The position numbers were made by a program, and so were the translations under genes. 64,000 bases of DNA from Patescibacteria group bacterium (GTDB lineage Bacteria; Patescibacteriota; Patescibacteriia; Magasanikbacterales; GWA2-37-8). A model generated the notes under the pieces. That model had not been told where the DNA came from. It was given only the letters and a program-made list of their open reading frames with translations, and did not search any database. The stretch spans positions 6,163 through 70,162 of the forward strand of contig JBAZKA010000002.1 of the NCBI GenBank assembly GCA_041651015.1, in the 5' to 3' direction. Positions 4,897 through 53,051 of the stretch are shown here, piece by piece (the first letter of the stretch is position 1; every line of letters begins with the position of its first letter).

Positions 4897-5299
4897 ATTA
4901 TTTAATCAAATATTATCACAACAAACCAGATAAATCAAAAACCACCCTATTTTGTAAAAAACCCGAGAAATTTATCTCGGGCTTTCAGGGTTCAATGGAA
5001 TCCGTACTCGACAAATATATTTTGTCGAAAATTCACGCTTTTGTCAACATAACCGTGAATAGATGTGATTTTTTCGGAATTATTCACGGTTATCAAGCTA
5101 CAACAAATAGCCATAATTACGTATCCGAAGCTCGCGCGCGAGATTTTCAAACGTATTGCCCTCCTCCATAATATCTGATATATTTAATTCATTATACCCC
5201 TCGGGGTATAACCCAAATTCATTAAAAATTTTATCATATTTTAGCGGTTTTTACCACTAGTTATGATAAAGGTAGTTCAGCGACATCGCTTCGCTCGTC

Positions 5300-10011: not shown

Positions 10012-11154
10012 ATGACCAGCACAAGAGAACAAAATGGCGGTTACTATGCAATTAAGGGTTTTACCTATCAATTTGATAAGTCTCTTTTAGAAATCCTTAA
10101 GAACCAAACGCAGGATGTCGAACTTGAACAAATTCAAGACATTGGGCTAAGCGATTACTATATTCAAGTTAAATACAAAGAAACTCAAAATTACGCCGAT
10201 TCAAAAATCAAACCAGCAGTGTTGCAATTATTAAAATGTTTTCTGGATGATAAAAATAAAAAATTCAAACTATATTGTTATTTTAAAGACAAATCGTCAC
10301 AGACAATCGCTTTAACCGATACCAAGCTTGATGAAATATTAGGTTCAGATAGTAGTGCTTACACGCAAAGTGATAAACAAGCTTTTGTGGGAAATTTCAC
10401 TTTGGAATTTTCAAGTAATTTTGAGAAGCAGTTTAGTGATCTTATAAAACTTATAAAAACCTGTTTTAGTTTAAAGACAGAGGAAGAGGCAACAACATAT
10501 CATGCAATATTTAAAGCAAATTTATTTGGTATAGCCATTAAAAAGAATCCAAAACAAAGAACAATAAATTATAAAAAACTAAAAGAAGTCGCTAACAGCA
10601 ACGAAAAAATAATATTTGATATAGCTTATTGTAAATATCTAAAGATGGAACGATATTTGAAGTATGTAAAAAAAGAGTATTTCACTTTCAAAAAAGTAAA
10701 TACTCCGAGCAAAGAAAGACTTTTTGTTGTTGAGATGGATAATTCAACAAGGGATGGAGATGCCATTCAAATCATAACAAATATAAAAAATCGATACTTC
10801 AAAAAGGATACATCCCCAGCTCCTTATGTTTGTTTATTTGGGATAGACAACGAAAGGATTGCTAATCTCAAACAAAAACTTTGGGACAAGGGGTTGATAT
10901 TTTCTGACGGCACACATTTTGATAGGGATAAATTTAGAATGACTGATCTTATTGCAGACACACATAATAACAATTGTGGTATAACATTTAAGCTTTTGTC
11001 ACTTGAACAATTACCTCTCTTTTTCAAAAAGAAACGACCCGATGAGACTTTTGTATTTTTAACATCTGGCGATGGAGAATGGCGAACAAAAGTTAAAGAA
11101 TTCAAAGAGTTTTATATTGGTCGCACAAAAAATATTACTAAAATAATTCAATAA
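10012..11154 (+). CDS. DUF4297-like (Cap4-type PD-(D/E)xK-like) putative nuclease, partner of HerA ATPase
   Basis: 380 aa. N-terminal GFTYQ motif and D...(I)QVK motif resemble REase-fold QxK variants. Immediately precedes HerA-like gene (4 bp gap). Confidence 0.45.
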   Translation: MTSTREQNGGYYAIKGFTYQFDKSLLEILKNQTQDVELEQIQDIGLSDYYIQVKYKETQNYADSKIKPAVLQLLKCFLDDKNKKFKLYCYFKDKSSQTIALTDTKLDEILGSDSSAYTQSDKQAFVGNFTLEFSSNFEKQFSDLIKLIKTCFSLKTEEEATTYHAIFKANLFGIAIKKNPKQRTINYKKLKEVANSNEKIIFDIAYCKYLKMERYLKYVKKEYFTFKKVNTPSKERLFVVEMDNSTRDGDAIQIITNIKNRYFKKDTSPAPYVCLFGIDNERIANLKQKLWDKGLIFSDGTHFDRDKFRMTDLIADTHNNNCGITFKLLSLEQLPLFFKKKRPDETFVFLTSGDGEWRTKVKEFKEFYIGRTKNITKIIQ

Positions 11155-15871: not shown

Positions 15872-15949
15872 GTACTGTGGATAATTATTAACATTTTGGC
15901 TAATTCAAGCCAAAATTATAGTACACTGGAGACAAAAATTAATGTTTTT

Positions 15950-24054: not shown

Positions 24055-27000
24055 TTATTCAAAATCTTCTTTCTTGAGCATGGGAGGAGGCGGCAAATCG
24101 TCTTTTTTTGGATTCTCATCAACCGGTTCCAATTTTGCCACGTTATAATTACCCTGCTCATCGCGTTTCAGAAGTTCCACATCCAAAGCCAAGCCTTTCA
24201 ATTCTCTGACCAAGACATTAAATGATTCCGGCACATTCACTACTTTAATATCCTCGCCTTTGATAATGGCTTCATAGGCTTTAGAGCGTCCCGGCACATC
24301 ATCAGACTTGATGGTCAAAATTTCTTGCAGGATGTGAGCGGCGCCATAGGCCTCAATGGCCCAGACTTCCATTTCTCCGAAACGCTGACCACCGGATTGC
24401 GCGCGGCCGCCGAGCGGTTGCTGAGTAATGAGAGAATACGGACCAATGGAGCGTTGGTGAATCTTGTCTTCAACCATGTGGTTGAGTTTGAGCATGTAGT
24501 TGTAGCCGACCGTGACTTTGTGGTCAAACGGCTCGCCGGTGCGTCCATCAAAAAGATTTGATTGGCCGGTGACCGGAAAACCGGCACGGGTCAATTCATT
24601 TTTGATTTCTTCTTCGGTCACGCCATTGAAAGCCGGAGTCGCCACTTTATAATTTAATTCATTCGCGGCCAAACCCAAATGATTTTCCAAAATTTGGCCG
24701 AGGTTCATACGAGAGATAACGCCGAGCGGTGACAAAATAATATCTACCGGCGTGCCGTCCTCAAGGAAAGGCATGTCTTCCACCGGCACGACTTTGGAGA
24801 TAACACCTTTGTTGCCATGACGGCCGGACATTTTGTCGCCGACTTGAACTTTGCGCATATCAGCCACGCGAACGCGGACTTGCTTGATCACGCCCGGTTC
24901 CAATTTGTCGCCGTTCTCGGCCGAGAAAACCTGCACGTCAATCACTTTGCCGTGTTCGCCGTGTTCCAAATACAAAGATGAGTCGCGCACATCGCGAGCT
25001 TTTTCACCAAAGATGGCGCGCAATAATTTTTCTTCAGCGCTAAGTTCGGTCTCGCCCTTGGGCGTAATTTTACCCACCAAAATATCGCCGGATTTTACTT
25101 CGGCGCCAATGCGGACAATACCCTCGGCATCAAGATTTTTTAATTTTTCTTCAGACACGTTCGGTATATCCGAAGTGACGAGTTCGGGGCCGAGTTTGGT
25201 TTCGCGCACATCCACGGTGTAGTCTTCAATGTTGATGGAGGTATAGCGGTCGCGTTTCATGATTCTATCAGATACAATGACCGCGTCTTCATAGTTGAAA
25301 CCGTCCCAAATAAGGTAAGCGACCAATATATTCTGGCCAAGCGCCAATTCGCCGTCTTTGATACACGGACCATCAGACATAGCATCGCCCTTTTTCATTT
25401 TTTGTCCGATATTAACGGTCGGATGCTGATTGACGCAGGTGGCGGCATTGGAACGTAAGAATTTTTTCAAACTAAATTTGTGTTCCATGCCTTTTTTATC
25501 AGTCAAGACAATTTTACTGCCGTTGACTTCGGTGATTTCACCGTCAGCCGGGGCTTTGATGATATAGCCGGAATTGTCCGCGGCCGCTTTTTCCACACCG
25601 GTGCCGACCAGCGGAGGTTCTGGTTTGATACACGGCACGGCCTGGCGTTGCATGTTCGTACCCATGAGCGCGCGAGTGGCGTCGTCATGTTCCAAGAAAG
25701 GAATACAGGCAGTGGCCACGGAAATAATTTGCGTGGACGAGACATCCACAAAATCAATTGAAGCAGATTCAACCGTACCCGGTTTGCCGTAAATACGAGC
25801 CGCAACAATTTCATCCAAGAAGTAGCCTTTGTCGTCAACGCGGACCGTGGCCGGCGCCGTGACCATTTTTTCTTCGCGGAAAGAATTCAAATAAATAATC
25901 TCGCCGGTGAGACGCGGTTTAACCGAAATGGTTTTTAATTTTTTATCCGCCTCCAATTTTTTGGCTACGTCTTTGGTGATTTGCGTGCCATCTTTGAATC
26001 CGCCAACCGAGCCATTCAAAATTTCTCCTTCGGTGAGCGTGGCGTCGTTGTTAATCTCCTTCAAAACTTTTCGGTAAGGAGTTTCAATAAAACCAAATTC
26101 ATTGACGCGGGCAAAACTGGAAAGGTGGTTGACCAAACCAATGTTCGGACCTTCCGGCGTGGCAATCGGACAAATACGTCCGTAATGAGTATTATGGACA
26201 TCGCGCACTTCAAAGCCGGCACGATCGCGGGACAAACCGCCCGGACCGAGCGCGGACAAACGGCGCTTGTGTTCCAATTCAGAGAGCACGTTGATTTGAT
26301 CCATGAACTGCGAAAGCTGTGAGCTCATGAAAAATTCTTTGATGGCCGAGATGACCGGACGCGCGTTGATCAATTTGTTCGGCGTCAAATCATTCGGATC
26401 ATAAGTACTCATACGGTCTTTGACCACGCGTTCCATGCGGGCCAAACCAATGCGGAAACGATTTTGCACCAATTCCCCGACCGCGCGAATACGGCGGTTG
26501 CCGAGGTGATCAATATCATCCGGGTCTTCTTGGGTGGAATTCAAACGAATAACTTCTTTCACTACCAGCAATAATTTTTCCGCCGAAAAAACACGGTTAT
26601 CTTTTTTCTGATAATCCTCGGGTAAAAGTCCGAGGTCAAATTTTGTATCAAATTTATAAACGCCGACCGGAGATAAATCATAGCGGTCAAAATTGAAAAA
26701 CATGGCGTAAATCAAACTCTTGGCATTGTCGGCCGTGGCCAAATCACCCGGACGAATTTTTTTGTAAACTTCAATCAAACCTTCATCTGTGCTCTTGGCT
26801 AAATCCTTGGCAATAGTCGCTTCCACATAATCCACATGCGGATTCACATTCACGTCTTTCAAGGCTTCGCGCAATTTATCATCATCACCATAACCAAAAG
26901 CGCGGAGGAGCGAAGTCACCGCCACTTTGCGTTTGCGGTCAATCTTCACCCAGAGGACATTATTTTGATCAGTTTCAATTTCCAGCCAAGCACCGCGATT

Positions 27001-27492
27001 CGGAATAATCTTCGCGCCATAGTAACGACGGCCGCGAACATTTTCACCGGTAAAGAATACACCAGCCGAACGGATGAGCTGGGACACGACCACGCGCTCA
27101 ATACCATTCACGATAAATGTGCCTCGTTCAGTCATGACCGGCAAATCGCCCAAATAAATTTCTTGCGTTTTTGTCTGTCCGGTTTTTTTGTTGGACAATC
27201 TGGCGTTGACGCGGAGCGGGGCCTCGTAAGTCATGTTGCGGTCCCGGCAAACCATTTCGTCAAATTTCGGTTCGTCCAAATAATATTCTTCAAAAAATAA
27301 TTCCAAGTCGCGTTCGGAAAAATCCGTCATCGGCGATACTTCCTCAAAAAGTTCTTTAATGCCGAACTTTACAAAATTATCATAAGAATTTTTTTGCAAT
27401 TCTATCAAATCCGGAAACGCCATCGCATCTTTGATCGGGGTAAAGAAGCGGCGCGGTTCAGCGGTAATGCCACGGTATTTATATGAAGGCAT
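24055..27492 (-). CDS. rpoB: DNA-directed RNA polymerase subunit beta
   Basis: 1145 aa with conserved RpoB blocks. Confidence 0.95.
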   Translation of the reverse strand: MPSYKYRGITAEPRRFFTPIKDAMAFPDLIELQKNSYDNFVKFGIKELFEEVSPMTDFSERDLELFFEEYYLDEPKFDEMVCRDRNMTYEAPLRVNARLSNKKTGQTKTQEIYLGDLPVMTERGTFIVNGIERVVVSQLIRSAGVFFTGENVRGRRYYGAKIIPNRGAWLEIETDQNNVLWVKIDRKRKVAVTSLLRAFGYGDDDKLREALKDVNVNPHVDYVEATIAKDLAKSTDEGLIEVYKKIRPGDLATADNAKSLIYAMFFNFDRYDLSPVGVYKFDTKFDLGLLPEDYQKKDNRVFSAEKLLLVVKEVIRLNSTQEDPDDIDHLGNRRIRAVGELVQNRFRIGLARMERVVKDRMSTYDPNDLTPNKLINARPVISAIKEFFMSSQLSQFMDQINVLSELEHKRRLSALGPGGLSRDRAGFEVRDVHNTHYGRICPIATPEGPNIGLVNHLSSFARVNEFGFIETPYRKVLKEINNDATLTEGEILNGSVGGFKDGTQITKDVAKKLEADKKLKTISVKPRLTGEIIYLNSFREEKMVTAPATVRVDDKGYFLDEIVAARIYGKPGTVESASIDFVDVSSTQIISVATACIPFLEHDDATRALMGTNMQRQAVPCIKPEPPLVGTGVEKAAADNSGYIIKAPADGEITEVNGSKIVLTDKKGMEHKFSLKKFLRSNAATCVNQHPTVNIGQKMKKGDAMSDGPCIKDGELALGQNILVAYLIWDGFNYEDAVIVSDRIMKRDRYTSINIEDYTVDVRETKLGPELVTSDIPNVSEEKLKNLDAEGIVRIGAEVKSGDILVGKITPKGETELSAEEKLLRAIFGEKARDVRDSSLYLEHGEHGKVIDVQVFSAENGDKLEPGVIKQVRVRVADMRKVQVGDKMSGRHGNKGVISKVVPVEDMPFLEDGTPVDIILSPLGVISRMNLGQILENHLGLAANELNYKVATPAFNGVTEEEIKNELTRAGFPVTGQSNLFDGRTGEPFDHKVTVGYNYMLKLNHMVEDKIHQRSIGPYSLITQQPLGGRAQSGGQRFGEMEVWAIEAYGAAHILQEILTIKSDDVPGRSKAYEAIIKGEDIKVVNVPESFNVLVRELKGLALDVELLKRDEQGNYNVAKLEPVDENPKKDDLPPPPMLKKEDFE

Positions 27493-27858
27493 AAACTTTT
27501 TCTATAAATTATTTATTATTTATAAATTTAGTTGAAGAAAGTTTTGGAGGCGAACACAAAAAACTACCCTATTTGCGGGGTTTTTTGGAAAATCGTAAAA
27601 TTTAGTTTGATAGCAAGGTTGACATGAGTTTTGTTTTACCTTGCGCGGAGCTCAATTTTTAGGAAAAATTGGCCACGCTTAGCCAAAAATGGCTATGGTT
27701 GGATCGTGTTCGCACGACCCGAAGTTCAAAGTAGCTTGATTTTACCTGAAATCAATGATTTTGTCAACAGAAACGGCATTTGACCGGTTTGTCAAGTGTT
27801 TGCCAATTTTAGGCTAATCTTAGCCAAAAGATAATTATCCCGAAAAACTATATAATTG

Positions 27859-27920
27859 AGTTATCCACAGTTGGTGCACACAAACCCCTAATACATCTAT
27901 ATATAGGACAAAAAAACTGA
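27859..27920 (+). repeat. 62-bp direct repeat copy A flanking RM cassette
   Basis: gagttatccacagttgGTGcacacaaacccctaatacatctatatataggacaaaaaaac; about 57/62 identical to 30034-30095. Confidence 0.8.
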
Positions 27921-27992
27921 CACACTCAAGTGCAGGCCGTTTGGATATCTAGAATCGCGTCGCGGGTATCACCCACGCACCAGAAACTGCAT

Positions 27993-28970
27993 TTATTTTA
28001 GTTCGCCCAAAAATTTATTAAACCCGGCAGTATTGATAAAAAAGTTTTGCTTATTGCGCCGTAAATTTTGTTCAATGTTATCCAGCTGGTTAAGTATTTT
28101 CCCTTTGTTCATGCTCTTCCTGTCGGCGAATAAATTAAAGTACAAGCCATCCAAAAATGACATGTAGTGTATTCTTGGATTCGTTTCACTGAAACTAATG
28201 AATGCAATCACCTCGTTGATTTGTTTATCTTGACCGCCACCGCCTTCTTTCATGTGTTTGTGCTCAATGATAAATATATCTTTTTTGTTTCGTATCAAGA
28301 AATCCGGCATTTTTTGTTCTTTCTTTGCACTCCAAGAAAATTTTATTTTATAACTACTCAACAGACCTTGAAATAGCTTTTTCCCTTTTTTATCCGCCTC
28401 AACATACTTCTTATCACCCCGCGAAACAAAGTCGGCCAACGACTCTCCGTTGCATTTTTTGTATCCCGCTTTATCAAGAATCTTTGATACCTTGTAAATC
28501 CCCAAGTTGCCGCTTTCCTTGTGCGCCTTGGCATCTTTTCCTACCTGTAGCGTCGTCGGAGAATATCCATAAGATGCGTAAATACCGTGCCTCAATTCAA
28601 TATATTTGCCCACTACATTTTTTATTATGTTTAACTTTTCTTTGTCGCTCATTTTGTTGTAGAGACTATAGGAAATATCAACTACCGGCCAAAATGAAAC
28701 AAACTCGGAATAATTAATATTTTTGCATTTAACAATTTGCAATATCTTTTCTATTGCTTGTTTTTCGGTCACCTTATTTTTATTTTTTCTTGCAAAATTA
28801 TAGGCAGATATGCTTTCCAATAACTCGGAATTTTTTCTCATTAGGTCCGTTGGGTTGCTGGCATCTTTGGAGATAATCAGATTCCCATGTTTCAAATATA
28901 ATTCATCAATAATCGGTTCGGGATTTCTCAATGAAAATTGAAAAAGTTTTATGTTATCAATTTTTTTCAT
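27993..28970 (-). CDS. putative Type II restriction endonuclease (cognate of adjacent methyltransferase)
   Basis: 325 aa with no family recognised; possible (D/E)xK-like segment IIEHKH; overlaps methyltransferase gene by 14 bp in the same orientation. Confidence 0.4.
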   Translation of the reverse strand: MKKIDNIKLFQFSLRNPEPIIDELYLKHGNLIISKDASNPTDLMRKNSELLESISAYNFARKNKNKVTEKQAIEKILQIVKCKNINYSEFVSFWPVVDISYSLYNKMSDKEKLNIIKNVVGKYIELRHGIYASYGYSPTTLQVGKDAKAHKESGNLGIYKVSKILDKAGYKKCNGESLADFVSRGDKKYVEADKKGKKLFQGLLSSYKIKFSWSAKKEQKMPDFLIRNKKDIFIIEHKHMKEGGGGQDKQINEVIAFISFSETNPRIHYMSFLDGLYFNLFADRKSMNKGKILNQLDNIEQNLRRNKQNFFINTAGFNKFLGELK

Positions 28971-29976
28971 AAGTATATAAATTTAAACAGGAGTTCGGGC
29001 ACGCCAATGCATGGGCGTCCTCTAAAAACGCTCTGGCCGTCATATAATCCAGCCGGCGTCTCCGCTCGCCGTTCTTTTTATTTCCCTTGAACGGCGAAAG
29101 AAGCACATCTTTCGTCTTTTTCCTAAAATCATATAACATTTGGTTGCTGTATTCAATAATTTTATCAATCAGTTCACCGCGAGCGTCAACCTCTATTACC
29201 GTTATCAATCTTGAGCTTTGTTTTATATCTGACAAATCATAGTCTATCTCGTCGGGCCGCATAAATGAAATCGGTTTTTTCGGATTTGTTGTATCCACGG
29301 CGCGTAACGCAATCTGGCCGGTAGGCACGTTGAATTTCATACAAAAATTTCTTTGCGGTATGCGACGCATCCTTTCAAAATAACCCAATTTGCCAAGAAA
29401 TTCATCATTTTTATAAACGTTAATTTCATCGTATGTCTTATTTCTCCGATCAAAACAAATCACGCAAATAGGATTCTCGGTGTCGTTAAATAATTGATCT
29501 TCAATAATTGTAATACTGACGAGTCGATGTTTCGGAAAACTCGAATTGATAAAAGTTTCCGGTATTATCATTACACCGAAATCGCTTGATAAACATTTCT
29601 CAATAGCCAATTGATAAATATCATCAAACTTACAGACTTCAAAATATTTTTTTACATTTTCATATATTCCTTTTCTTTTGGCGCTATAATTCGTCAAATA
29701 TGGAGGGTTGGTAATAATGACCGATTTATCAATCCTTGGAATATCCAAAAGACTATCGTTAATTTTCCAATTCAAACTTCTATCAATATCTAATCCTTTT
29801 GTTTTTTTAAAGCCAATCTTTTTAGCAACATCCAATAAATCTCCGCCTCCGGCAAAAGGATCGTACGCGACTTCCGCGCCGGTGGACTTTATAAAATCCA
29901 AAACATGGTCAGTCAGCCAAAAATTATTTATAGTAAAAAATTGCCCAAGACTTTGTTTTTTGATAATGGCATTCAT
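28957..29976 (-). CDS. gamma-class N6-adenine DNA methyltransferase
   Basis: LGQFFT (motif X), DPFAGGGDLL (motif I), ITNPPY (motif IV), C-terminal target-recognition region. Confidence 0.8.
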   Translation of the reverse strand: MNAIIKKQSLGQFFTINNFWLTDHVLDFIKSTGAEVAYDPFAGGGDLLDVAKKIGFKKTKGLDIDRSLNWKINDSLLDIPRIDKSVIITNPPYLTNYSAKRKGIYENVKKYFEVCKFDDIYQLAIEKCLSSDFGVMIIPETFINSSFPKHRLVSITIIEDQLFNDTENPICVICFDRRNKTYDEINVYKNDEFLGKLGYFERMRRIPQRNFCMKFNVPTGQIALRAVDTTNPKKPISFMRPDEIDYDLSDIKQSSRLITVIEVDARGELIDKIIEYSNQMLYDFRKKTKDVLLSPFKGNKKNGERRRRLDYMTARAFLEDAHALACPNSCLNLYTYEKN

Positions 29977-30033
29977 AAATACATTATAGCCGATGTGGAA
30001 TAAAAAATACAGTTTACAAAAACTTCAAAAAGG

Positions 30034-30095
30034 AGTTATCCACAGTTGATACACACAAACCCCCTATTACATCTATATATAGGACAAAAAAACGG
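30034..30095 (+). repeat. 62-bp direct repeat copy B flanking RM cassette
   Basis: gagttatccacagttgATAcacacaaaccccctattacatctatatataggacaaaaaaac. Confidence 0.8.
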
Positions 30096-30133
30096 GCGGC
30101 CTATAACAGGCGGCCCGCTGAGGTACTACTTGC

Positions 30134-30763
30134 TCACGAAGAGAAAGGCGCGGGGTAATCCCCGCCAGCCAAGCTGCGAGGCGCTTCCAAAGACGTTTCT
30201 GCGTCATCTTCATCGTCGGACTGGCGCATCAATTCCTGTACCCTCTGATAAAAGACCTCTTCATCGGGGATTTTGTCCGAGAAATTTTCCCTCAAAGAAT
30301 CGACGATTTCGTGCAATGCTTTGCGAGTGGCAAGACGAGTCATGTGGGTGTATGTCAACCCAACACGCTCATCCGACCCGGGCGCAGTCGTTCTAAGTTG
30401 TTCAAACAGCTCTTGCAACTCGGCAAACGATGTATGGTGTTCATTTTCCCACCACTTGAAAATGAGGTCTTTGGCCCTGATGATTTGCACGCTTGATGCG
30501 AAGGATACACCAAAAGGAAACAGAAGACTGATACCAAGCACAACGGAAAACGACAATAAAATCCACTTAGTGATAATATTTGAAAAAATGTAATGGATAC
30601 CGAACGCTATCAATGCCAATAAAAATATCACCCCCAGCACGGAGATGAATTTGTTTAATACGGGCTTCGGCCACGCTCCGGCGCGGTCGATCTTTTCATC
30701 GGCTTCAGCTTTTTTCGCGGCCAATTGATGGTAGGCTACCATCTCGCGCATTTTTTCACTCAT
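30134..30763 (-). CDS. hypothetical membrane protein (two TM helices, acidic C-terminus)
   Basis: 209 aa; GC content higher than surroundings; intrinsic terminator on minus strand at about 30095-30125. Confidence 0.5.
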   Translation of the reverse strand: MSEKMREMVAYHQLAAKKAEADEKIDRAGAWPKPVLNKFISVLGVIFLLALIAFGIHYIFSNIITKWILLSFSVVLGISLLFPFGVSFASSVQIIRAKDLIFKWWENEHHTSFAELQELFEQLRTTAPGSDERVGLTYTHMTRLATRKALHEIVDSLRENFSDKIPDEEVFYQRVQELMRQSDDEDDAETSLEAPRSLAGGDYPAPFSS

Positions 30764-30892
30764 TTTTCCCCTCGTTTTTCTATGCCGTCAAACGGCATTT
30801 TGTTTTGAATGTGCGAACTCTCCAAATAACATAGCATAATTTTCCGCTCCGGTCAATAACGCATCCGTTGCGTACCAACTTAACTTGTCCAC

Positions 30893-31145
30893 ACCTTGAC
30901 ACAATCACGATACACAATTAAAATGTTTGTTAAGTAAACGAAAAATATTTTTCTCCAGCAAGCTGCGGTGGAGCTGATGTCTTAAGCCATTCAATTCTTG
31001 GAGACATCTCTCTCCTCCCTTCAACAATTTCTTTTAATTGTTATTGGGAGTCGTCCTCAAAATAGGATCGGACCTTAAATCATGCAGCTGCACTCGCAGC
31101 TTTTTGGAGAAAAGCCACCCGCCTCGCGCGGGTGTTTTTTGTTCA
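30893..31145 (+). ncRNA. candidate small RNA (promoter TTGACA-17-TAAAAT at 30893-30922; tandem intrinsic terminators at about 31080-31105 and 31110-31145)
   Basis: no ORF; contains CU-rich stretch atctctctcctccc (anti-SD-like). Terminators are agctgcactcgcagct+T5 and cacccgcctcgcgcgggtg+T6. Confidence 0.25.
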
Positions 31146-31217
31146 CAGTGCTTGGTTTGTTGCTTACCAAATAAAATGGTAAAATACAGCCGAACCTAAC
31201 CGGTGTAATTTTATATT

Positions 31218-52384: not shown

Positions 52385-52633
52385 AATTATGAATTAATTA
52401 ATAATTATTTATATAGATTTCACGCATTTATTTATTGAATGCGTCTTTACATAATTATATCATATATATAGACCTATGTTAACTGTGCATAAGATAATTT
52501 TCGCGTAGCATCGTTTACCTCGCAACAACAGTAAATATATTTTCTCCGGCAGTCGGTTGCGCACGCGGCACACAAGATTGATAAAATTTATTTATCGCCG
52601 TTAATGTTTTATCAACACACCTGACTACCTTCA

Positions 52634-52659
52634 GTTTGTATACACTAGTGTATACAAAC
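52634..52659. promoter_or_regulatory. perfect 26-bp palindrome GTTTGTATACACTAGTGTATACAAAC, copy 1 of 3
   Basis: identical copies at 53385-53410 and 53644-53669. Confidence 0.8.
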
Positions 52660-52720
52660 ATCCACTTTATGAGCAGGTTATGCACAGACTTATCCACAAT
52701 GCTTTGCGTTGTGTAGGTGG

Positions 52721-52792
52721 GTTCGATTCCTTGTTTTATATATAATAAAAAGCGCATAAATGCGCTTTTTATTATGTGGACCTGGGGGGAAT
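52721..52792. repeat. 72-bp direct repeat copy 1 (contains terminator hairpin AAAAAGCGCATAAATGCGCTTTTT and a copy of the last about 17 nt of tRNA-Ala)
   Basis: identical to 52925-52996. Confidence 0.8.
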
Positions 52793-52924
52793 TCCGCATC
52801 GTCTCGTCCGCCCTAGGCGGACTCGACTCTTTGTCCTGGGCAGCGGCGGACTTCCACCGGAAGTCCGCCGACACTCGTCAGCTCGTTTTTGCTTCCGCAA
52901 AAACTTCGCGCCTCGTTCCTGCCC

Positions 52925-52996
52925 GTTCGATTCCTTGTTTTATATATAATAAAAAGCGCATAAATGCGCTTTTTATTATGTGGACCTGGGGGGAAT
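52925..52996. repeat. 72-bp direct repeat copy 2 (overlaps true 3' end of tRNA-Ala(CGC) and its terminator)
   Basis: identical to 52721-52792. Confidence 0.8.
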
Positions 52997-53051
52997 CGAA
53001 CCCCCGCCTCAGCAATGCGAATGCCGCATAATACCACTTTACTACAGGCCC
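52981..53051 (-). tRNA. tRNA-Ala (anticodon CGC)
   Basis: hand-folded: acceptor GGGCCUG/CAGGUCC with G3:U70, anticodon loop UUCGCAU, T-arm GGGGGTTCGATTCCCCC, discriminator A, CCA not encoded. Confidence 0.8.

Follow-up and report, generated by a model that had tools for sequence, protein, structure and literature searches.

A probable restriction-modification module inserted between long direct repeats upstream of rpoBC in an uncultured member of the Patescibacteria

The window analyzed here, by which we mean the whole 64-kb stretch of DNA, comes from an uncultured member of the Patescibacteria and carries two minus-strand genes between rpoB and its upstream neighbor. The downstream gene, rpoB (24055-27492, minus strand), encodes a protein with six RNA polymerase beta-subunit (Rpb2) Pfam domains. 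The upstream gene (30134-30763, minus strand) encodes a lineage-specific protein of 209 amino acids, and it served as the anchor for finding orthologous loci. This protein matched no Pfam family and had only 3 homologues among 5.8 billion proteins; the source lists it as a Patescibacteria MAG protein. Genes within ~8 kb encode rubrerythrin, RuvC, YebC, RpoC, RpoB, FtsK, an HTH_25 protein, RecA and a T2SSE-family (type II/IV secretion) ATPase. Judging from Pfam domains, there was no integrase or transposase in the insert described below or within ~8 kb of it, and no tRNA was found at the insertion site.

The inserted DNA (27918-30017, minus strand) is 2,100 bp long and consists of its own promoter region, a methyltransferase (M) gene, a putative endonuclease (R) gene and a 75-nt 3' tail. 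Its only open reading frames are those of M (28957-29976) and R (27993-28970), which confirms that the flanking repeats bracket exactly two minus-strand genes, as an earlier note on this DNA had stated. The insert's GC content, 0.36, compares with 0.474 for rpoB, 0.476 for the gene of the 209-aa protein and 0.425 for the window.

The M protein (339 aa) has the motif order of the gamma class, with motif I (DPFAGGGD, residues 39 to 46) ahead of motif IV (TNPPY, residues 89 to 93), and is predicted to methylate adenine at N6. In Pfam it matched the Eco57I methylase domain (PF07669, 4.7e-6), in which motif I likewise precedes motif IV (NPPY), and N6_Mtase (8e-4). Residues P40, F41 and A42 of motif I were invariant in 20 of 20 homologues, and TNPPYL was identical in all 19 homologues that reach motif IV; the reading frame of locus L033 is interrupted earlier by TGA. 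M thus has both of the motifs, I (FxGxG) and the catalytic IV ((D/N)PPY), that are expected of the SAM-dependent DNA methyltransferase of a Type II restriction-modification (RM) system.

The R gene overlaps the M gene by 14 nt and encodes a probable Type II restriction endonuclease of 325 aa. Its PD-(D/E)XK signature, P222-D223 ... E236-H237-K238, was invariant in 32 homologues. The Pfam family Tsp45I was matched at E <= 0.01 by 18 of 32 R family members (best E, 1.7e-6) and DpnII, rather than Tsp45I, by 3; the window protein itself scored E 1e-3 and 19.2 bits against Tsp45I, below the cutoff of 25. The Tsp45I alignment covers profile positions 168 to 247 of 260, around the PD...EXK signature. 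In the AlphaFold model (pLDDT, 77.7), D223 precedes a strand at residues 224 to 228, while E236 and K238 lie in a strand at residues 231 to 238; the 170 residues at the N terminus are helical and gave no matches. A Foldseek comparison of the model with the PDB gave nothing significant, the best match (E 0.011) being to a GPCR, and PD-(D/E)XK proteins (N.BspD6I, McrC, Can2 and Hjc) appeared only at E values of 0.2 or worse. A profile search of PDB sequences with the R protein found no match. Tsp45I has been placed in the PD-(D/E)XK superfamily (PMC3424549). Motif conservation and the subthreshold Pfam matches indicate that the 325-aa protein, presumed earlier to be the endonuclease, is probably a PD-(D/E)XK Type II enzyme; at the level of sequence it has the hallmarks of one. 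The arrangement also resembles that of the Tsp45I family (PF06300) paired with a gamma-class N6-adenine methyltransferase (PF07669), which likewise forms a two-gene operon, M then R, with the PD...EXK catalytic signature in the C-terminal half of R. The similarity of the window protein to this family is remote, and the recognition sequence of Tsp45I, GTSAC, is therefore not transferable to it. A palindrome-avoidance scan of ~300 kb of cassette-bearing DNA revealed no clear recognition target; the lowest observed-to-expected ratio was 0.61, for GTWAC.

The M gene is preceded by a -10 box, TATAAT (29983-29988, minus strand), 6 nt ahead of its ATG, a position which suggests that the M-gene mRNA may be leaderless or nearly so. 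A simple promoter scan did not call this box. Of the 21 other cassette loci listed, about half have a TATAAT-like hexamer ~5 to 8 nt ahead of the start codon, which indicates that the -10 box travels with the cassette. DNA similarity to other cassettes extended at most from 30009 to 27991. The 41-nt promoter region of the cassette matched nothing else in the window and nothing in any locus. The tail (27918-27992, minus strand), which separates the stop codon of R from the left repeat, is 75 nt long, has a GC content of 0.53 and resembled neither the target nor any other cassette locus nor anything else in the window; it may be filler or DNA from the donor flank.

The insert is flanked by direct repeats, neither assigned to a strand, at 27843-27917 (75 nt; left, downstream copy) and 30018-30093 (76 nt; right, upstream copy). 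In a global alignment, 67 of 76 columns were identical, and in the core (27858-27917 versus 30033-30093) 57 of 61 columns were; the earlier estimate was ~57 of 62 bp, and its coordinates were correct to within 2 to 3 nt, with positions 27918-27920 and 30094-30095 falling outside the repeat. In the repeat search the pair came out as two in-register blocks, shifted relative to each other by a 1-nt indel, and the match had a BLAST E value of 5e-19. Each repeat half-pattern occurred exactly twice in the 64-kb window, a result equaled in 0 of 100 dinucleotide shuffles. The ends of the repeat are sharp, with similarity stopping beyond both of them, and on the inner side it includes another 15 nt, of lower identity, that the earlier note had not counted. 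Divergence between the copies is 6.6% in the core and 12% overall; of the nine differences, four fall in the outer 61 nt and five in the inner 15 nt. The right copy comprises a G and seven Ts, a variable stretch, CAACTGTGGATAACTC and then TTTTTGAAGTTTTT; a DnaA-box-like 9-mer lies within CAACTGTGGATAACTC at 30036-30044, and its counterpart in the left copy, which continues into the native upstream region of rpoB, lies at 27861-27869. Both junctions of the filled site were resolved to the nucleotide. An independent Logan assembly was 100% identical over 2,551 nt covering both repeats, so the filled site is not an assembly artifact.

The possibility that the original duplication was longer was considered and rejected, since neither end of the insert resembles the sequence outside the opposite repeat. 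The tail showed no resemblance to the sequence upstream of the right copy (1,815 of 2,000 shuffles scored equally well), nor was the beginning of the insert similar to what follows the left copy (238 of 2,000 shuffles).

The segment present in two copies runs from the last stem base and the T-run of a terminator to 18 nt beyond a conserved TGTGGATAA box. The terminator hairpin belongs to the gene of the 209-aa protein (30093-30118, minus strand; -19.6 kcal/mol, z -2.5), and its T-run (30086-30092) forms the first part of the duplicated segment. An equivalent hairpin and T-run were found in the relative L002 (z -3.3) and, by sequence, in L010. The earlier note had placed the A-run of a minus-strand terminator at the end of each repeat. 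This holds for the right copy, where the hairpin is genuine; in the left copy the A-run simply came along with the duplication, and nothing more than a weak stem precedes it (z -0.66 for the 91-nt fold). On the other side, the native rpoB-side promoter (27739-27767, minus strand; TTGACA-17-TAAAAT, 11 of 12 matches in the promoter scan) has remained intact, 76 nt past the left copy; both L002 and L010 have it conserved. Between this promoter and rpoB, and outside the insertion, there is a conserved structured leader with a terminator (27556-27733, minus strand), the fold of which has an MFE of -55.1 kcal/mol (z -6.5) and 53 consensus pairs, of which 4 show compensatory changes. A search of the repeat and the upstream region of rpoB against Rfam found no match.

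Orthologous loci that lack the cassette were found in two lineages. One is represented by six contigs from six samples, all identical (L002 to L007), and the other by one further contig (L010). The spacer between the gene of the 209-aa protein and rpoB is 485 nt long in the former and 484 nt in the latter; each locus has a single copy of the repeat segment, with collinear flanks on both sides, and tblastn detected no trace of M or R in any of them. When the insert is taken out of the window together with one of the repeat copies, 465 nt are left, which align end to end with the empty spacers at 79 to 81% identity. The empty-site junction was modeled as …GGCCGCCC-GTTTTTTT…AGTTTTT-CGGGATAA…. A single repeat copy in relatives without the cassette is what the earlier note had predicted, and it shows the repeats to be duplicated target sequence. 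Exact-pattern scans of metagenome contigs, with the window-specific repeat half and then with the conserved box pattern, returned no matches.

The window and L002 share 96.9% amino acid identity in RpoB, 95.7% in RpoC and 93.6% in FtsK; rpoB is 88% identical at the nucleotide level, and the neighboring DNA differs by ~12%. The inner 38 nt of the right copy (30055-30018) are 94.7% identical to the single copy of L002, and the left copy is collinear with L002 from 27880 downstream (85% over 184 nt). At its inner end the right copy is like the L002 allele (13 of 14 positions), whereas the left copy has a different version. In the variable middle stretch, both window copies carry a window-specific version that is strongly unlike L002 and L010. 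Barring gene conversion, the duplication therefore took place after the split from the L002 and L010 lineages. The low GC content of the insert and the lack of the cassette in these two outgroup lineages point the same way.

The cassette is mobile among Patescibacteria genomes. There were 286 homologues in all, and the M and R genes are kept together as a unit, with different neighbors, in 22 other Patescibacteria loci, where identity is 48 to 76% for the endonuclease and 60 to 78% for the methyltransferase. The closest cassettes (80% identical) lie between tRNA synthetase genes. None of the 22 loci had flanking direct repeats at E <= 0.01, save for one 18-nt match at chance level, so duplication is not a regular signature of the cassette. 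Nor did these loci have any common sequence outside the coding region and ~30 nt upstream of it, or any shared att-like ends.

We consider it probable, at roughly 80%, that an RM module with its own promoter arrived by horizontal transfer and was inserted upstream of rpoBC with duplication of ~75 bp of the target. Besides the promoter, the module would comprise a gamma-class N6-adenine methyltransferase and, translationally coupled to it, an endonuclease of the PD-(D/E)XK type that is a distant relative of Tsp45I; the point of entry is a spacer with the terminator of the 209-aa protein gene on one side and the region upstream of the rpoBC promoter on the other. The data show the insertion itself, the duplication, the empty site with its single copy, the lack of a recombinase and the movement of the cassette between genomes. 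The earlier note had likewise read the locus as an RM module inserted between direct repeats ahead of rpoB, and the empty sites bear out this core of its reading. It had also held the repeats to be too long for target-site duplications, a view contradicted by the single-copy empty sites and by documented target duplications of >30 bp (PMC2853133).

Insertion of RM units with target duplications of this length has been described (PMC2853133; Furuta, Abe & Kobayashi 2010, NAR 38:2428), earlier cases being those of Nobusato et al. 2000, as cited in PMC2853133, which extended them. The window shares the features used to define such cases by Furuta et al. in 2010. Homologues of R and M, the former assigned by sequence only, lie within an insert of less than 20 kb (2,100 bp); the target duplication exceeds 30 bp (75/76 nt, with a 61-nt core at 93%) and is unique in the available sequence, with two copies in 64 kb; no mobility gene, multicopy repeat or tRNA is present; and related genomes similar on both sides of the insert (L002 to L007 and L010) have a single copy and no insert. 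The cases in Haemophilus influenzae, with 46-bp repeats identical at 44 of 46 positions and an insert of 32% GC in a genome of 38% GC (PMC2853133), are very similar, including the lower GC content of the insert relative to the host. The window differs from the published cases in several respects. The Patescibacteria (CPR) are not listed among the taxa of that survey, the comparison is between related species (rpoB, 88% nucleotide identity) rather than strains, and the repeat copies are more diverged (88 to 93% identity). In addition, the upstream breakpoint coincides exactly with the foot of a terminator hairpin, and a DnaA-box-like motif lies in the segment, beside rpoBC. The insertion is thus a clean new example of a documented mode, and the kind of element is already known. 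Transposons also leave target duplications around inserted DNA, but they have terminal inverted repeats and a transposase, both of which this insert lacks, and classical transposon target-site duplications range from a few base pairs to about 14 bp.

A circular cassette carrying one 75-bp copy could instead have entered by a single RecA-dependent crossover at the resident copy (Campbell-type integration), which would also leave two repeats. RecA and RuvC are encoded close by, 75 bp suffices for RecA recombination, and the circle could have been excised through flanking repeats in a related donor strain, with a junction modeled as …GTGTGTCA-[one repeat copy]-GTAAACTG…; excision and reentry via repeats are part of the life cycle proposed for RM units (PMC2853133). 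Copies of different ancestry would fit the uneven distribution of differences (four in the outer 61 nt, five in the inner 15 nt), as well as the likeness of the inner end of the right copy, at 13 of 14 positions, to the L002 allele while the left copy has a different version. However, the spacer that contains the inner 15 nt is also variable between L002 and L010, and faster neutral drift explains the pattern equally well. A donor with such an arrangement was not found, the nearest cassettes being 80% identical and in other contexts. Moreover, this route only moves the problem back, since the first association of cassette and segment still requires a primary insertion with duplication. We regard it as unlikely. 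Of the homology-mediated insertion suggested in the earlier note, Campbell-type entry thus survives, but only as a secondary route.

The same note had also raised site-specific insertion, which would make the 60- to 75-bp repeats the attL and attR of an integrase acting in trans. Many integrated elements are flanked by direct repeats of tens of base pairs, and integrase-mediated islets with att repeats (PMC2853133, Figure 3d) share with the window both such repeats and a single-copy empty site; the repeat also holds the conserved, protein-binding-like motif TGTGGATAA, found 44 to 74 nt upstream of M in 4 of the 22 other loci. Yet the integrase islets, for example RM units in tRNA genes, have what the window lacks, namely an integrase, a tRNA target and an element end conserved among copies. 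With neither an integrase nor a transposase inside the insert or within ~8 kb of it, no common attP-derived end at the 22 other loci, and hence neither the recombinase gene nor the conserved att core required of a site-specific integrative element, this route appears highly improbable, and the suggestion is not upheld. Empty sites alone give no direction, and deletion between direct repeats leaves exactly one copy; the cassette and both repeats could accordingly be ancestral, recombination between the repeats having removed the unit from the lineages of L002 and L010. This would require two separate losses, or one loss plus recombination, and it is at odds with the lineage-specific middle stretch that both window copies share and that is very different in L002 and L010. 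The foreign composition of the insert (GC 0.36 versus 0.47) and the patchy distribution of the cassette, with identities of up to 80% (amino acid) that appear too high for vertical descent among lineages so far apart, also speak against ancestral presence, and we give loss next to no weight.

The TGTGGATAA box lies 44 to 74 nt upstream of the M start in the window, as it does in the four other cassette loci mentioned above, and it was found near 3 of 19 cassettes versus 6 of 211 genes (one-sided p = 0.03). This comparison was chosen post hoc and the enrichment is weak; the motif was noncoding in 9 of 12 matches and is a general intergenic motif in these genomes, which also lessens its value as a sign of site-specific entry. 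Enrichment of DnaA boxes beside cassettes was therefore dropped as a candidate. It is very doubtful that insertion is nonrandom, with a preference for sites a few tens of nucleotides downstream of TGTGGATAA and one breakpoint at the foot of a hairpin. Under that reading, a host DNA-protein complex or a secondary structure would direct long staggered breaks, and the preference, if true, would be the first target determinant for the mechanism of long target duplication.

Insertion of a horizontally acquired module with target duplication could have proceeded by two routes, and in either the joining, we infer, was illegitimate rather than site specific. The ends of an incoming linear fragment may have been ligated, with fill-in, to breaks ~75 nt apart, or the breaks to which they were joined may have been on two sister copies, at positions that did not coincide. 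How long target duplications form at the molecular level is unexplained in the literature (PMC2853133). The present case adds a data point on the origin of such duplications; it is a well-controlled example of RM-unit mobility without a recombinase, in which the filled site, the empty site and both junctions are resolved to single nucleotides. After the duplication, the gene of the 209-aa protein would have retained its hairpin and T-run, and rpoBC its full upstream region, promoter and leader. Because the duplicated target leaves the signals of both neighbors intact, insertion beside essential genes would be tolerated, and a single 2-kb M-plus-R cassette family that circulates widely in CPR lineages is thereby able to settle beside rpoBC. 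According to a passage in PMC6509639, this phylum rarely encodes CRISPR-Cas systems.

The resident module presumably methylates the DNA of its host and cuts incoming DNA that is unmethylated, and it may resist loss through postsegregational killing. The flanking repeats would allow its excision or amplification by RecA. Set against the ~12% difference between the window and L002, the divergence of the repeat copies (6.6% in the core, 12% overall) means that the event is not very recent or that the two copies differ in history.

The direct repeats upstream of rpoB align as two in-register blocks with a 1-nt indel between them. In a global alignment, 57 of the 61 columns of the repeat core (27858-27917 versus 30033-30093) were identical, and extending the copies 15 nt inward, to 27843 and 30018, gave 67 identities in 76 columns (BLAST E = 5e-19 for the pair). 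Each repeat half occurs exactly twice in the 64-kb window, a result matched by none of 100 dinucleotide shuffles. Since no residual similarity was found outward or inward of the copies, the boundaries are sharp. The 2,100 bp between them (27918-30017) contain exactly two ORFs of notable size, both on the minus strand and overlapping by 14 nt. The repeats proposed in the earlier note are thus confirmed, as is the pair of overlapping genes said to lie between them. The note had also placed a terminator at each repeat; one is present at the right copy (30018-30093), whereas the T-run of the left copy (27843-27917, on the rpoB side) is preceded by only a weak stem. The insert's GC content is 0.36, as opposed to 0.474 in rpoB and 0.476 in the 209-aa gene on the other side. 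An independent Logan assembly of the locus (run SRR8542065) was 100% identical over 2,551 nt covering both repeats, and the structure is therefore not the artefact of one assembler.

The upstream gene of the pair (28957-29976, minus strand) encodes a 339-aa methyltransferase in which motif I, DPFAGGGD (aa 39-46), precedes motif IV, TNPPY (aa 89-93). Judged from its sequence, this is the gamma-class order with a catalytic motif of the N6-adenine type. The protein matched the Eco57I-type methylase (4.7e-6) and N6_Mtase (8e-4) domains. Residues P40, F41 and A42 of motif I were invariant across 20 homologues, and TNPPYL was identical in all 19 that were long enough to reach motif IV.

The downstream gene (27993-28970, minus strand) encodes a 325-aa protein with 286 homologues, all unnamed and nearly all from Patescibacteria. 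In an alignment of 32 of these, P222, D223, E236, H237 and K238 were invariant, and the arrangement P222-D223...E236-H237-K238 reads as the classical PD...(D/E)XK signature. Tsp45I, a Type II restriction enzyme family within the PD-(D/E)XK superfamily (PMC3424549), was matched in Pfam by 18 of the 32 homologues (best E 1.7e-6); the match of the window protein covers the catalytic region and falls below the 25-bit cutoff (E 1e-3, 19.2 bits). In the AlphaFold model (pLDDT 77.7), D223 immediately precedes a strand at 224-228, and E236 and K238 lie in the following strand (231-238). Because of the invariant signature, the Tsp45I matches and the modeled placement, we regard the protein as a probable restriction endonuclease. 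Palindrome avoidance gave no clear recognition site, and nothing useful was gained from NCBIfam, PADLOC and plasmid collection searches.

The two genes were found together, in constant order, at 22 other loci in Patescibacteria, the host labels of which include Giovannonibacteria, Paceibacterota, Gracilibacteria, Doudnabacteria, Saccharibacteria and others. Identities were 48-76% for the endonuclease and 60-78% for the methyltransferase. The neighbors of the cassette vary, and its closest relatives (80%) are placed between tRNA synthetase genes. DNA similarity between cassettes ends within approximately 30 nt upstream of the methyltransferase start and at the endonuclease stop, so the entity that moves spans 2 kb and brings its own promoter. 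A TATAAT-like -10 box (29983-29988 in the window) lies some 5 to 8 nt before the methyltransferase ATG here and in roughly half of the remaining cassette loci listed, which suggests that a leaderless transcript has been conserved. In one member, from a MAG labeled Peribacteria (L033), the conserved glycine of DPFA-G-xGD is a TGA codon (approximately 5111-5113); either the gene is a pseudogene or the host reads UGA as glycine (code 25). A DnaA-box-like 9-mer was found 44-74 nt upstream of the methyltransferase gene in 4 of the 22 other loci. As a target signal for the cassette this lead is weak: the motif is generally located in noncoding DNA in these genomes, and a fairer test, chosen post hoc, gave only 3/19 versus 6/211 (p = 0.03).

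Two metagenome scans with exact repeat and box patterns returned no match. Orthologous loci were located via two homologues of the 209-aa protein (30134-30763), a lineage-specific protein whose source record is a Patescibacteria MAG. Six contigs, each from a different ENA sample (L002-L007), have nothing but 485 nt, identical in all six, between the 209-aa gene and rpoB; the spacer in a JGI contig (L010) is 484 nt. Orthology to the window was clear from amino acid identities of 96.9% for rpoB (87.9% in nucleotides), 95.7% for rpoC and 93.6% for FtsK. The spacers contain, in order, a terminator hairpin with its T-run, a single copy of the segment, which ends in CAACTGTGGATAACTC followed by some 15 nt, and then a TTGACA-17-TAAAAT promoter and a leader, both conserved, before rpoB. 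No trace of either cassette gene was detected there by tblastn. Without the insert and one repeat copy, the window spacer measures 465 nt and aligns over its full length with either empty site (79-81% identity). Relatives lacking the cassette thus carry a single repeat copy, as the earlier note had expected, and its proposal of an inserted restriction-modification cassette is supported. The single copy also means that the flanking repeats represent duplicated target DNA, an origin that the note had wrongly excluded for repeats of such length.

Both window copies share a middle stretch, GTCCTATATATAGATGTA.TAGGGG.TTTGTGTG, that is strongly unlike the version in L002 and L010, and the duplication therefore postdates the split of the lineages. 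An ancestral cassette lost from the relatives is disfavored by this lineage-specific sequence, as well as by the foreign composition and the distribution of the cassette. Together with the boundaries of cassette DNA, these observations indicate that the window lineage gained the cassette. Divergence between the copies is 6.6% in the core and 12% over the whole repeat, compared with about 12% between the window and L002 in adjacent DNA. This means that the insertion did not occur very recently, provided that the two copies share one history.

The locus is an instance of a published class, "insertion with long target duplication," first described in Helicobacter pylori and then in many bacteria for all restriction-modification types (Furuta et al., PMC2853133). 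In that class, both enzyme genes lie inside an insert of <20 kb, the duplication exceeds 30 bp, no other mobile element is present, and the compared genome has a single copy; all of these hold in the window. A close parallel is a Type II case in H. influenzae, with 46-bp repeats (44/46 identical) and an insert with 32% GC, compared with 38% for the genome (PMC2853133). The mechanism was called unknown, with double-strand breakage suspected (PMC2853133). In the favored reading, an incoming linear fragment was joined illegitimately to breaks approximately 75 nt apart, which would have lain either in one duplex, with subsequent fill-in, or on two sister copies, each cut at a different position. 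Of the two breakpoints, one coincides exactly with the foot of the terminator hairpin (30093), and the other is 18 nt beyond the TGTGGATAA box (30018). After insertion, the 209-aa gene retains its hairpin and T-run, and rpoBC retains its whole upstream region, promoter (27767-27739) and leader; preservation of both control regions plausibly explains how an insertion beside essential genes survived. The locus offers a nucleotide-resolved example in Patescibacteria.

The site-specific insertion suggested in the earlier note is unsupported. No recombinase gene was found in the insert, which holds only the two enzyme genes, or within about 8 kb, where the genes encode rubrerythrin, RuvC, YebC, RpoC, RpoB, the 209-aa protein, FtsK, an HTH_25 protein, RecA and a T2SSE-family (type II/IV secretion) ATPase. 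Neither terminal inverted repeats nor a tRNA was found at the site. As far as is visible, a recombinase was not involved, and an integrase supplied in trans is disfavored because the 22 other cassettes revealed no common end sequence; they also had no flanking repeats. Alternatively, though less probably, a circle in which one copy of the segment was already present could have integrated through a single, Campbell-type crossover; the host encodes RecA and RuvC, and the differences between the repeat copies are spread unevenly. However, this route would require a primary event before it, and the unevenly spread differences lie in a spacer that is itself variable between L002 and L010.

The conserved leader RNA between the near-consensus promoter and rpoB (27556-27733, minus strand; 10873-11052 in L002 and 3565-3743 in L010) has no relation to the cassette. 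Its fold is a closed four-hairpin junction, after which an intrinsic terminator lies approximately 65 nt before the rpoB ATG, with an MFE of -55.1 kcal/mol versus -32.1 ± 3.6 for shuffled sequences (z -6.5). Of the 53 consensus pairs, 4 show compensatory double changes, and no Rfam family matched at E <= 1. We regard the element as a candidate for a new attenuator/leader, or a small RNA, that would control rpoBC in this lineage. Two unrelated intergenic sites contain a TGTGGATAA box with a palindrome, TTTTGGCTAA-N3-6-TTAGCC(A/T)AAA, 25-35 nt downstream of it (palindrome at 27812-27829 and approximately 15895-15915), and the palindrome is kept in relatives (L002, approximately 10780-10800). The palindrome looks like an operator, and box and palindrome together may form a regulatory module; a similar sequence at 27671-27688 forms a hairpin within the leader RNA.

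Elsewhere in the window, a perfect 72-nt direct repeat (52721-52792 and 52925-52996, 204 nt start to start) contains the 3' end of tRNA-Ala(cgc) (52980-53051, minus strand), a hairpin terminator and a T-loop-like string, GTTCGATTCC. The pair resembles a second target duplication or an att-like scar and encloses just ~130 nt. Some 600 nt of AT-rich, gene-poor DNA at 52385-52980 contain clustered DnaA-box-like 9-mers (TGTGCATAA at 52484, TTATGCACA at 52678 and TTATCCACA at 52690) and may be an oriC-like region. L002 (8779-10004, versus 30764-31217 in the window) has two extra small genes between FtsK and the 209-aa gene; they encode 184 and 174 aa, have no Pfam domain and are missing from the window and L010. 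The 3' end of the L010 209-aa gene is nearly identical to that of L002, and the whole protein is 51% identical to that of the window; this locus is mosaic and recombinogenic.
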